The position numbers and the translations under genes are program-made. From assembly GCA_048882205.1 (NCBI GenBank), contig JBHLRV010000001.1, positions 1 through 27,489 on the forward strand: 27,489 nucleotides of DNA, in the 5' to 3' direction. Under the pieces are notes generated by a model. It had not been told where the DNA came from. It made no database searches and was given only the letters and a program-made list of their open reading frames with translations. Position 1 is the first letter of the stretch; every line of letters starts with the position of its first letter. Positions 43 through 4,329 of this stretch are shown in pieces. Source of the DNA: Candidatus Thorarchaeota archaeon (GTDB lineage Archaea; Asgardarchaeota; Thorarchaeia; Thorarchaeales; Thorarchaeaceae).

Positions 43-1851
43 TTAGGGCATATCTATCACATCAAGAGGGTCTATTGGCTCTACAGTTTCACCCTCTTCT
101 CTCAACCTCAAAATAGCAAGCTCGTAGGCTTTCAGAACGTCCGCCTTTGTAATGAAGCCAACCATCACATTGGGTATTCTTGGATCCACCACGACAGCAT
201 GTCCTTCGTTTCTTTCCAGCATGGTATGCAATACGCTGTCCATTGAGCTGTGTGGACTGATGCGCAAGAAGTCTGTACTCATCACATCTCTGACCAGTGG
301 TTCACAGTCATCATCTCTATCACAGAACAGATCTTCGGTGATCAGAGTTCCAACAATAAGCCCTTCAGCACTTACCACTGGGAATTTCGTATGCTGAGTT
401 TCATCTACTATCTGCAAAACCTGATCCCTTGCCATATCTGGACTGAGCACGGTGGGGGTTTCAGTCATCACATGGGCGACCTTGGCTTCTTTCAACGCAC
501 CAATGTAGAAACCTCGTCGCAGCCGGACACCTCTTCTCGACAGTTTGAGAGTATAGATGCTCTCTTCCTCGATTGAGGAAGCAATCAGGAATGAAGTTGA
601 TACGGCAATCATCAGCGGGAGAATCATTGAGTAGTCGGCCGTCATCTCCATGATGATTACTATACATGTGATCGGAGCTCTTCCCGTTCCGGCGAATAAT
701 GCCGCCATTCCAACGAGTGCAAAGCCTACAGGCTGTGGGACCACTTCAGGAAGAAGAGTCGAGAAGGTCACTCCGAATGCGCCTCCTAGAGCCGTACCTA
801 TGAAAAGGGTGGGGGCAAAGACACCACCCGATCCACCAGAGCCGAGCGTGAATGAAGTAGCCAGAGCCTTCAGAAGCCCAAATACAACTAATGCCGCTAC
901 AGATACACTCCCAATCAAGGCAGCATCTACAAAAGCATAGCCCACTCCCATAATCGCTGGAAAGTATGGGTCGCCGTCGAATAGACCTGCATAGGAGAAG
1001 GAGTCCTCCATGAGGAGCACAGCCACAGCAAGTGCTCCTACCATCAAACCGCCAATTACTGGAAGAATATGCCTCGGAGTCTTCAGGCGCTCAAACAAGT
1101 CCTCGACAGCATAGAATCCTCTGGTCCACAACACACTGGCAATACCAAGCAGAAGGCCCAACAAAAGGTATAGTATGAGTTCAAAATAGTTATTCAGAAG
1201 CAGGATCGGGGCCTGAAACGATGGCTGCGTTCCCAGAATCCAACCCGCAAGTGCTGTCGCCACAACAGAGGAAAGAATCACAGGGATAATCGAGAATCCC
1301 ACTATTCCGCCTGCAATCACTTCAATGCCAAAGAGAGTTCCTCCAAGAGGTGCGTTGAATGTGGCTGCAATGCCTGATGCCACTCCACAGACAACCAGTG
1401 TCTTGGTCATTCGTTTATCGAGTTTCAGAGAACTCGCAATGGCTGAACCTATACCACCGCCAATCTGCGCGATAGGCCCCTCTCGCCCGCAGGAACCTCC
1501 CGAACCAATCGTCATTGCTGAAGCCAGACTCTTCAGAAGAGGAACTCTCATCCGCATTCTTCCTCCTCGAAATGAGTATGCCTCCACTATTTCCGGCACA
1601 CCATGTCCTTTCGCCTCAGGCACATAGTTCTGTACTATGAAACCAACCACTAGACCACCCACTGCTGGGACAATGAGCCAGCCCCAAACACCGAGTAGTT
1701 GTGGCACTACTACAGACAATGAGCTAGTTCCCAGTATCAACCATCTGAAGCCGACTGCTACCAATCCCGAAACCACACCCACAACAGCCCCAAGTCCATA
1801 GATTCGCACCTGTTTCCTCATGATTCCGCTTTCTAGCATGTATTCGGTCAC
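43..1851 (-). CDS. CLC family chloride channel / Cl-/H+ antiporter with C-terminal CBS pair
   Basis: CLC motifs GHGVPE, GREGP (gating Glu), LFGIE (proton Glu), GGVFAP and IYT, then two CBS repeats. Start is uncertain (GTG 1851, ATG 1839 or ATG 1821). Confidence 0.93.
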   Translation of the reverse strand: MTEYMLESGIMRKQVRIYGLGAVVGVVSGLVAVGFRWLILGTSSLSVVVPQLLGVWGWLIVPAVGGLVVGFIVQNYVPEAKGHGVPEIVEAYSFRGGRMRMRVPLLKSLASAMTIGSGGSCGREGPIAQIGGGIGSAIASSLKLDKRMTKTLVVCGVASGIAATFNAPLGGTLFGIEVIAGGIVGFSIIPVILSSVVATALAGWILGTQPSFQAPILLLNNYFELILYLLLGLLLGIASVLWTRGFYAVEDLFERLKTPRHILPVIGGLMVGALAVAVLLMEDSFSYAGLFDGDPYFPAIMGVGYAFVDAALIGSVSVAALVVFGLLKALATSFTLGSGGSGGVFAPTLFIGTALGGAFGVTFSTLLPEVVPQPVGFALVGMAALFAGTGRAPITCIVIIMEMTADYSMILPLMIAVSTSFLIASSIEEESIYTLKLSRRGVRLRRGFYIGALKEAKVAHVMTETPTVLSPDMARDQVLQIVDETQHTKFPVVSAEGLIVGTLITEDLFCDRDDDCEPLVRDVMSTDFLRISPHSSMDSVLHTMLERNEGHAVVVDPRIPNVMVGFITKADVLKAYELAILRLREEGETVEPIDPLDVIDMP

Positions 1852-2018: not shown

Positions 2019-2334
2019 TGCAGCGGCCCCGCAGCGTCGATCGTCCTTTTTCTCAGTGCTATCTAACACCTTTCTCAAAGCAGCGCCCTCTGGGGCTCCA
2101 CCACCTAGTCTTAGGGCTGTTCCCGCCAGGGCCTGACCCGTTTCGACATTTTGAGCACACTCACAGCAGTCCTACGACTGTTGCTGTGGCTGTGACAGAC
2201 TCCAGAGACTGCTCGTCAACGTCCAGTGAAAGGACACATGAGCGTCCGGGTTCGTCCTCAGCGTTGGTTACTAGTCCCGGCTATTGCCATACCGGCTACA
2301 GGTCGCGGCAAACGACCCGACCCTACCCGCTGCA
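2019..2334 (-). ncRNA. ffs: Archaeal SRP (7S) RNA
   Basis: On the minus strand the termini pair (UGCAGCGG/CCGCUGCA, helix 1). Alu domain: GGUCG/CGACC, UGUAG, CCGG/CCGG, with complementary loops UUGCC/GGCAA. Helix 6 is CAGUC-GUAG-GACUG (GNAR loop). Helix 8 is GGGU-CAGG-CCC-UGGC-GGG-AACA-GCCC. Length 316 nt. Confidence 0.93.
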
Positions 2335-2357: not shown

Positions 2358-2364
2358 TAAAAAC
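2358..2364 (-). promoter_or_regulatory. Putative TATA box of the SRP RNA gene
   Basis: Minus-strand TTTTTA ends 23 nt upstream of the helix-1 start, which is the archaeal TATA spacing. Confidence 0.5.
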
Positions 2365-2380
2365 ATTCCGAAGTCATCAT

Positions 2381-4177
2381 CTAGACGAATGAACCTGTCG
2401 CTCTCTTTATCTCCGTAATCTCCTGTAAAACCTCAACCTCAGAAGGCGTAAGGTCATCTAGGAACTTCTTTCTCATAACCAGAATGTGCTTGTCAGGAAC
2501 GTCAGAATAGAGGGTCTGGTCATTCTTCACCTGTCTACCTATAGTGGGACCCCTGATAGACACAGCAACCTCCATGCCATTTGTGGCTTCGTCTATGGTC
2601 ACGCTCCTGTCCTGAATCTGCAGAATCGTGCCAATACGTTTCCCTTCGGAGTTGATCAGCCCGATCCTTGGTCTTATGATGCCGTGGATTCTTACTCCCA
2701 CTATTGCCGGGTCCTTCTGCCTAAAGACATACTCGGGCATCAACTCGATTTTACCAGGTCTGATTATTGCACTGAGAAACTCAGCCTTTGCCTGTTCCCT
2801 CTTGACAATCAACCAAGCATTATACTCATCATAGAGTCGATAGATGACCTCATTGAGGAAGGTTTCTACTCCGTACTCTGCCGCCAAGTCTTCTATGTCA
2901 GGGGCGAATTTCACGTTGAATCCCAGAACAACCGCATTCAGAGGGTCAGTGTCTCCGGCGGCCTTGGCCTCCACAACGTCGCGTTTCACTATCGTACCTA
3001 CATCTGCTACGCGTACTGGGACATTTCGGTCTTGCAGGAACTTGGTGACCGCTTCTAACGAGCCAAGAGTATCAGTCTTTACCACGATTCCAGAAGAGTC
3101 TCGCTGAATTCGTATCGAACTGACCTCTTCTTGCACTTTCTGCTTAATAGCGTCCAGCTCATCCAAACTCTCCACTGCATAGACCGGCGCACCAGCCACC
3201 GCCCCTTCTATGTCTGGTGCCACTATCTTCACGCCTGCTGCTGCATGCACCCCTTCAACCGGGTTGAACTTCTCCTTCGGATCCCGAATCTCGTCAAGTT
3301 CCTTTGGCTGTAGCAGAGCTCTGATCTTCGCAACAATGACGCCGTCAAGACCACCTACGACTATTGTGTCAGTCTTCTTCAGAATACCTTCATAGATGAT
3401 GGTATCCAAAGTCATTCCAAGTCCTGTTTCTTCTCTAACCTCTAGTATCGCTCCCCTTGCTGGGCCGTCTGATATCTGAAGCCTGTCTTTCATGTATTGT
3501 TGAGTAAGACCAGAAAGGACCATGAGAAGTTCTGGAATCCCGGTCCCGGTCTTTGCACTAGTGGGCACAATGGCAACGGACTTTGAGAAGTCTTCTACTC
3601 TATCGAACCTTTCCGAATCAAACCCATTGGCTGAGAGTGCACCCACAATCTCATAGAGACGCCGATCAACCTCTGTCTGAGTGCTCGTCCCTTGTGCCTT
3701 GATTGCCTGAAAGAGATTCATGTCAGGTTTCTCTCTCCAGCCGGGGACCTTGTCCAGCTTGTTTGCAGCCACAAGGAAAGGAGTCTTCCCGGACTGAAGA
3801 ATCTTTAATGATTCATACGTCTGCGTCAGAGCGCCCTCATTGATGTCTATGACAAGGATCGCTATGTCTGCTATTGCTCCTCCTCTTCTTCTGAGATTCA
3901 AGTACGCCTCGTGACCAGGAGTATCGATAAACAAGAGACCGTCAATTGTCAATTCAGTCTTCACGCTCTCAAGAAGATCACCGCAGATTGACTGAATTGT
4001 TTCCGTTGGGAAGAACGAAGCTCCTATGTGCTGAGTTATTCCTGCGGCCTCTCGGTCCTGAACTGCCGTACCACGCATCTTGTCTAAGAGGGAAGTCTTG
4101 CCGTGGTCGATGTGACCAAGCACAGTAACAATGGGGGAGCGCAACTTGGCACTTGGTCCTGACTCAGCTTTAGTCAT
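2381..4177 (-). CDS. infB: Translation initiation factor aIF5B (IF-2)
   Basis: LRSPIVTVLGHIDHGKTSLLD, GITQHIGASF, DTPGHEAY, NKLD, TSAKTG and later IF5B domains. Start placed at ATG 4177 rather than 4213. Confidence 0.97.
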   Translation of the reverse strand: MTKAESGPSAKLRSPIVTVLGHIDHGKTSLLDKMRGTAVQDREAAGITQHIGASFFPTETIQSICGDLLESVKTELTIDGLLFIDTPGHEAYLNLRRRGGAIADIAILVIDINEGALTQTYESLKILQSGKTPFLVAANKLDKVPGWREKPDMNLFQAIKAQGTSTQTEVDRRLYEIVGALSANGFDSERFDRVEDFSKSVAIVPTSAKTGTGIPELLMVLSGLTQQYMKDRLQISDGPARGAILEVREETGLGMTLDTIIYEGILKKTDTIVVGGLDGVIVAKIRALLQPKELDEIRDPKEKFNPVEGVHAAAGVKIVAPDIEGAVAGAPVYAVESLDELDAIKQKVQEEVSSIRIQRDSSGIVVKTDTLGSLEAVTKFLQDRNVPVRVADVGTIVKRDVVEAKAAGDTDPLNAVVLGFNVKFAPDIEDLAAEYGVETFLNEVIYRLYDEYNAWLIVKREQAKAEFLSAIIRPGKIELMPEYVFRQKDPAIVGVRIHGIIRPRIGLINSEGKRIGTILQIQDRSVTIDEATNGMEVAVSIRGPTIGRQVKNDQTLYSDVPDKHILVMRKKFLDDLTPSEVEVLQEITEIKRATGSFV

Positions 4178-4329
4178 AGGTGACACATCACAAGCAGACT
4201 TGCAGCCGAGCACGTGCCTATGTTTATGAAACTATTGCTTGGGCTAGCCAGTCTGAAGTGCCCGGTCACAAGCCTAAAATAGCCCTAACCAGCGTCGCGA
4301 CACCGAAACAAGTACCAGAAGTGAGAATC

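Follow-up and report, generated by a model that had tools for sequence, protein, structure and literature searches.

Genomic context and identification of the SRP RNA gene

The window, i.e., the whole 27,489-nt stretch of Thorarchaeota DNA that was analyzed, contains an SRP (7S) RNA gene flanked by a translation initiation factor gene on its upstream side and a chloride channel gene on its downstream side (Table 1). All three genes are located on the minus strand, and 48 nt separate the aIF5B/IF-2 gene from the SRP RNA gene. An equally spaced box (AACGTTTTTAGG) was identified upstream of the SRP RNA in 17 of the 18 Thorarchaeota-family loci listed (nine genera), G022 being the exception. The box in the window is probably an archaeal BRE/TATA promoter element.

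Table 1. Features of the SRP RNA locus, with coordinates given as positions of the window.
Feature	Position	Strand	Evidence
Downstream neighbor: ClC chloride channel with CBS domain	43..1851	minus	Pfam Voltage_CLC, CBS
SRP (7S) RNA gene, 312 nt, helices 1–6 and 8	2021..2332	minus	RF01857 match
Helix 8 apex, C-AGG / CCC-UGGC-GGG / AACA-G: SRP54-binding symmetric loop and apical hairpin	2117..2135	minus	Sequence reading; stem covariation
A replacing the conserved G of AGCA (E. coli G61 equivalent); G·G to G·A	2120	minus	RF01857 alignment; AACA in 65/75 family genomes
UGGC tetraloop replacing GGAA/GGGA	2125..2128	minus	RF01857 alignment; 66/75 family genomes
Helix 6 hairpin, GUAG (GNAR) tetraloop at 2175–2172	2162..2186	minus	Sequence reading; RF01857 alignment
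Promoter-like box AAUGUUUUUA, ending about 25–26 nt upstream of the RNA 5' end	2358..2368	minus	Conserved position in relatives
Upstream neighbor: aIF5B/IF-2 translation initiation factor	2381..4213	minus	Pfam GTP_EFTU, IF-2, GTP_EFTU_D4

Archaea_SRP (RF01857) is the best Rfam family for this RNA. At a permissive threshold, the gene matches this model with 83.8 bits (E = 5e-19) over model positions 1–317; its helix 5 region is part of the match, and helix 6 is present. At the default gathering thresholds Rfam reported only a tRNA in the window and left the SRP RNA gene unreported, its score being below the gathering score of 96.5 bits. All 30 aligned Thorarchaeota-family SRP RNAs close helix 6 with GUAG or GAAG. 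The RNAalifold consensus of 31 sequences (30 from the family and one outgroup) contains 71 pairs, 46 of them with compensatory change, and the 3-bp apical stem of helix 8 covaries among relatives (CCC/GGG, CUC/GAG, and CCA/UGG). A single SRP RNA copy was found in the source MAG (2.0 Mb, 376 contigs, 74% complete). The gene in the window is a complete archaeal SRP RNA gene and no chance motif, as the initial annotation had read it, including the GUAG loop of helix 6. It is a working gene, neither a relic nor an error.

Two types of Alu domain were observed among the Thorarchaeota SRP RNAs (alignment columns 12–65, corresponding to about 2270–2320 of the minus strand in the window). One type, to which the gene in the window belongs, has a UGUNR motif (CCUGUAGCC); the other is shorter and has no UGUNR motif (GUC--GAGACC). 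The two types cut across genus labels, both being present in genera g1 and g5.

Helix 8 apex

SRP RNA is among the few RNAs found in every cell, and nowhere is it more conserved than at the tip of helix 8. On the minus strand, positions 2139 to 2114 of the window read GGUCAGG-CCC-UGGC-GGG-AACA-GCCCU. In this register CAGG occupies 2135–2132, followed by the stem strand CCC (2131–2129), the UGGC loop (2128–2125), the stem strand GGG (2124–2122), and AACA (2121–2118). The consensus letters to which UGGC and AACA are aligned in RF01857 are GGAA and AGCA, respectively. The letters of helix 8 and the changed base at 2120, as given in the initial annotation, are therefore correct, and so is its reading of them as UGGC in place of a GNRA loop and as a G·A in place of a G·G pair.

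In a review of 81 archaeal SRP RNAs, the loops of helix 8 were GGAA, GGGA, and GAGA only, that is, GRRA (PMC2905702); the RNA in the window has UGGC at this place. The helix 8 loop adenosine bonds an adenosine in the GNAR loop of helix 6; according to the same review, this clamp is strongly conserved and probably common to all archaea and eukaryotes (PMC2905702). The canonical symmetric loop is made up of A-C, G-G, and G-A pairs, among which the G-G pair is highly conserved (PMC5807370). The RNA in the window keeps AGG on the 5' strand of the symmetric loop and has AACA instead of AGCA on the 3' strand. The A and the C of the invariant A-C pair are both retained, and the G to A change at 2120 turns the conserved G·G pair of the SRP54-binding loop into G·A.

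In bacterial SRP RNAs, GNRA is widely replaced by URRC (PMC4091067), in agreement with the initial annotation, in which URRC loops were given as mainly bacterial. The tetraloop of the E. coli SRP RNA matters for FtsY docking (summarized in PMC4091067). Non-GNRA loops, for example UMAC, can take GNRA-like folds (PMC12550061). A literature search found no published work on helix 8 of Asgard SRP RNAs.

Distribution within the Thorarchaeota family

A census was performed with a context pattern in which the ten apex bases were left free. It was applied to 86 genomes of the Thorarchaeota family; together with G017, which was read separately, 75 genomes could be scored. UGGC occurs together with AACA in 61 of these 75 genomes (81%) and with AGCA in five; GGGA is combined with AACA in four genomes and with AGCA, the canonical state, in the remaining five. 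Intermediate loops (UGGA or GGGC) were found in none of the 75 genomes, so loop positions 1 and 4 always switch jointly while the central GG is kept. Both changes of helix 8 are an inherited trait of the Thorarchaeota family. With 66 UGGC and 65 AACA genomes among the 75, the variant is lineage-specific, as the initial annotation had suggested. That suggestion drew on the two changes together; a coupled redesign of the S domain is not supported, since all four combinations occur within the family.

To follow the two traits, we used a tree of 53 SRP RNA genes from which the apex columns had been removed. The canonical pair G145/G984 is nested in a group with UGGC and AACA (supports 99/95 and 96/87). 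Three further genes with GGGA and AGCA fall inside a 100/100 clade whose other members have UGGC and AGCA, and this clade in turn lies within a 96/97 clade that has members with UGGC and AACA. At least five changes of each trait, the loop and position 61, are required by the SRP RNA gene tree. G125, too, shows position 61 reversed, within a 100/100 protein clade. These placements suggest that the loop returned from UGGC to GGGA, and position 61 from A to G, several times. The deep family branches are unresolved in the SRP54 and SRP19 protein trees, and some MAG contigs may be mis-binned; consequently, we claim neither an exact number of switches nor an ancestral state.

Two genomes show discordant placements or copies. 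The SRP RNA of G125 (L189) groups with genus g7 in the SRP RNA tree, and SRP54 together with SRP19 place this genome beside G141. Contigs C13 and C288 of G980 (L436 and L437) carry two different SRP RNA genes. The discordance in G125 and G980 suggests gene transfer, recombination, or mis-binned contigs.

Distribution in other archaea

For the other Asgard lineages, 73 SRP RNAs were retrieved, of which 48 were readable with the strict apex motif. GGAA or GGGA with AGCA is present in 46 of the 48 readable RNAs, and the other two, both from family f22, combine a GNRA loop with AACA; a URRC loop was found in none of the 48. The two f22 genomes with AACA and normal GGAA/GGGA loops are G124 and G157 (genomes L268 and L269, SRP RNAs L229 and L231), and G129, which belongs to the same family, has AGCA.

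Extra bases at the helix 8 apex are present in most of the 25 RNAs that could not be read. Tip inserts of 20–35 extra bases were observed at helix 8 in SRP RNA genes of the Asgard families f7, f15, f19, and f21, with the form AGG-CCC-GGGA-G[A...GA(A/U/C)]GG-AGCA. Examples are L161:1501-1844 (G054), L010:1501-1856 (G030), L173:1501-1861 (G087), and L168:1501-1840 (G069), together with their relatives. A different insertion site was found in L222:1-344 (G050, family f18), where a hairpin insert of about 30 nt is located on the 5' side of helix 8, directly before AGCCCGGAAGGGAGCA.

The pattern AGG-NNC-URRC-GNN-ARCA was also searched in two sets of 401 genomes each, one from the phylum that contains a Methanoregula MAG, the other from that of Thermoproteus sp. 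CP80. In these two phyla, its matches are no commoner than those of a reversed control pattern. Rfam was used to check 29 places that have complementary stems or recur in several genomes, and an SRP RNA was identified at one of them, contig 42 of G866 (L379:92-418, plus strand), from the phylum of Thermoproteus sp. CP80. This RNA scores 118.6 bits and reads CAGG-CCC-UGGC-GGG-AGCA. It shares CAGG-CCC-UGGC-GGG with the Thorarchaeota RNAs but keeps AGCA; as it is GC-rich and resembles them in helix 8 only, it is of independent origin. UGGC is thus rare in archaeal SRP RNAs and has arisen at least twice. The possibility, raised with the initial annotation, that the variant is already common in archaea does not agree with these counts, which comprise no URRC loop in 48 other Asgard RNAs and one UGGC case in about 800 genomes of two phyla.

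Recurrent URRC-like motifs of Thermoproteota and Halobacteriota (AGGAGCUAACGUAAGCA, AGGAUCUAACGUUAACA, AGGACCUGGCGAGAGCA, and others) were considered as SRP helices and rejected. No SRP RNA was found by Rfam at 28 of the 29 places, which indicates that these motifs are other conserved or chance sequences.

Protein partners

The source MAG encodes an SRP54 with an M domain (PF02978, 113.6 bits), SRP19 (PF01922, 69.9 bits), and FtsY; its PF00448 matches score 253.9 and 248 bits. The RNA-binding motif SSRIxRIAxGSG of the SRP54 M domain is retained in genomes of all apex states and in the outgroups, and SRP19 retains WPxYLD...GRRIP and YPR. Compensatory changes in SRP54 and SRP19, a check suggested with the initial annotation, were not observed. 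In the alignments of SRP54 and SRP19, no column sorts the genomes by loop (UGGC or GGGA) or by 3' strand (AACA or AGCA), in a residue-tracking comparison whose power is low (4 genomes against about 20, unresolved trees, and possibly mis-binned contigs).

In the comparison within the family, columns 84 and 87 of FtsY, in its variable N domain, separate the four GGGA genomes from 18 UGGC genomes. The residues on either side are mixed (IR vs. FLMV and KNQ vs. AEST). With a variable region, mixed residues, and four GGGA genomes, we set this separation aside as chance. In contig C144 of G042 (L265:2469-2626), an unrelated sequence with a run of N at its end breaks the SRP54 gene; the break is an assembly gap or scaffold join and no natural split.

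Sequence integrity and RNA-derived data

Positions 2110–2140 are covered by contigs of four public runs, each from a different study (mangrove DNA, hydrothermal-vent DNA, and two metatranscriptomes). Within 2114–2139 these contigs do not differ from the assembly, and they contain no joints; stretches that have no contig cover carry no evidential weight. A single metatranscriptome contig spans 2044–2333, near the predicted bounds of the SRP RNA, although transcript ends, base modifications, and rare edited forms lie beyond the reach of assembled contigs. The variant letters of helix 8 are present in RNA-derived data.

Three rival explanations of the variant letters were considered. The source MAG is fragmented and incomplete, and an assembly or sequencing error could in principle have replaced true GGAA and AGCA letters. 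The same apex letters, however, occur in 60 other, independently assembled genomes of the family and in the contigs of all four runs, and these observations refute such an error, which was also considered in the initial annotation. The incomplete MAG might likewise lack a second, canonical SRP RNA gene that does the work, the gene in the window being a decaying or spare copy, and G980 does have two SRP RNA genes. Against this stand the near-complete relatives G098 (98%), G052 (98%), G062 (99%), and G019 (97%), each with one match that is of the variant type, as well as the strong compensatory change all through the SRP RNA, the conserved promoter-like box, and the RNA-derived contigs; moreover, both copies in G980 have UGGC and AACA, and this MAG has 7% contamination. 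We regard a spare copy as highly improbable. A canonical loop might also be restored in the mature RNA by editing, base modification, or removal of a small intron, and the tip insertions in four other Asgard families count in favor of this idea. The Thorarchaeota gene, on the other hand, has no extra letters, being 312 nt long and collinear with the RF01857 model, and at the apex two metatranscriptome contigs agree with the genomic letters and show no joints, so that post-transcriptional correction is very doubtful.

A possible basis of the variant apex

We consider it likely that the locus holds a single functional SRP RNA gene with a near-neutral, family-wide exchange of one GNRA-like loop for another, accompanied by a tolerated change from G·G to G·A. 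The GNRA loop, which is GGGA in most Asgard relatives, is replaced by UGGC, with a change from G...A to U...C at the loop ends and the middle GG kept. UGGC may preserve a GNRA-like turn in which a U-C contact takes the place of the sheared G-A. Such a fold is suggested by analogy with bacterial SRP RNAs that have URRC loops and with UMAC loops that mimic GNRA, and the joint change of loop positions 1 and 4 across the 75 genomes gives it indirect support; the fact that UGGC lies outside the UMAC consensus counts against the analogy. At position 61, the new G·A stands beside the existing G·A pair and would be tolerated by the unchanged SRP54 M domain.

Because GGGA is accepted in many archaea, the helix 6 adenosine must bond with the A at position 4 of the helix 8 loop, in agreement with the human numbering A201. 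This A is absent in UGGC, and the packing must then use an A-C contact, or SRP19 together with internal-loop contacts. The adenosine of helix 6 may contact the loop C instead of A, or the contact may be dispensable given SRP19. Both states are tolerated by an unchanged SRP54 M domain and SRP19 and toggle within the family, which would make them near-neutral alternatives rather than parts of a redesigned particle. The fold of the loop, the A-C contact, and near-neutrality are what we infer, and we see no sign of a new mechanism.

Two other readings give the change a functional weight. UGGC and G·A could form a co-adapted S domain, a functional redesign matched in SRP19, the SRP54 M domain, or FtsY, for instance with another packing of helices 6 and 8 or another docking site for the receptor. 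This would fit the dominance of the double variant (61 of 75), the loss of a clamp adenosine described as likely universal (PMC2905702), the role of the tetraloop in FtsY docking in E. coli (PMC4091067), and the two FtsY columns that separate GGGA from UGGC genomes. It is opposed by the occurrence of all four combinations with reversions inside well-supported clades, and by SRP54 and SRP19, whose alignment columns do not separate the states and whose RNA-binding motifs are intact; the FtsY columns are variable, with mixed residues and only four GGGA genomes. On balance we think co-adaptation unlikely. The Thorarchaeota may also have given up the adenosine clamp between helices 6 and 8, using an A-C contact or SRP19 alone instead, so that the switches between GGGA and UGGC represent two selected solutions, with the SRP RNA gene perhaps exchanged between Thorarchaeota lineages; this, too, appears improbable to us. 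The reported universality of the clamp (PMC2905702) implies that a loss of the A should matter. The association of the two traits (61/5/4/5) and the predominance of the double variant could reflect selective advantage or coupling, with shared ancestry as a confounding factor. The near-neutral exchange remains the reading that we prefer, at the strength given above.

Comparison with known SRP RNAs

The Thorarchaeota RNA resembles other archaeal SRP RNAs (RF01857; 7S RNAs of Methanocaldococcus jannaschii and Archaeoglobus fulgidus) in having an Alu domain, helix 5, a helix 6 with a GNAR loop, and a helix 8 with asymmetric and symmetric loops, and in having SRP19, SRP54, and FtsY as partners. It is likewise encoded by a single gene, which has its own putative promoter. 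It differs from them in the UGGC loop of helix 8, in place of GRRA, and in the 3' strand AACA, in place of AGCA.

The URRC loops of bacterial 4.5S and 6S RNAs (PMC4091067) occupy the same position and have the same make-up, with U at position 1, purines at positions 2 and 3, and C at position 4. In contrast to the Thorarchaeota, which have helix 6 in the RNA and SRP19 in the genome, the bacterial URRC systems have neither, and therefore their loop need only serve FtsY docking. At the place of the Thorarchaeota loop, archaeal and eukaryotic RNAs bind SRP19 and form the loop contact between helices 6 and 8. The change from G·G to G·A is no part of the bacterial URRC variant as described. Four-base UMAC/UNAC loops that mimic GNRA in rRNA and phage boxB (PMC12550061, citing Zhao et al., 2012) share the U...C ends with UGGC, which differs from them in having G at positions 2 and 3 instead of M-A. 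The Asgard genes with tip inserts are similar to the Thorarchaeota gene in that their helix 8 apex departs from the textbook sequence; the Thorarchaeota gene has no insertion, and its loop letters themselves are non-canonical.

A whole Asgard family thus has no clamp adenosine and an altered G·G pair under SRP54, yet its SRP19 and SRP54 are standard. This shows that two rules, closure of helix 8 by GRRA in all archaea and the adenosine clamp in all archaea and eukaryotes, are softer than stated. With all four combinations in near-identical backgrounds, the family provides natural mutants that could be used to test the roles of the loop and of the G·G pair.

Detection of SRP RNA genes by Rfam

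According to the initial annotation, standard searches may miss this gene on account of its helix 8. The gene is indeed missed at the Rfam gathering score; the cause proposed, however, is not borne out. SRP RNAs of the Thorarchaeota family score from 72 to 120 bits against RF01857, most of them below the gathering score. G145, which has a canonical helix 8, scores 72.7 bits, whereas G041, G092, and G042, with one change each, score 112–120 bits, and relatives with UGGC or AACA reach 104–120 bits. Since a relative with the canonical helix 8 scores low and variant ones score high, helix 8 is not the cause of the low Rfam score, and that of the gene in the window comes mostly from divergence outside helix 8.

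The effect extends beyond this family. SRP RNA matches (E ≤ 1e-3) were obtained in 131 of the 151 sampled Asgard genomes, and only 73 of the 151 have an SRP RNA above the gathering score, which means that routine annotation misses the gene in many Asgard genomes. Annotation based on motifs and on the Rfam gathering score misses the SRP RNA in Thorarchaeota genomes and in about half of the sampled Asgard genomes.
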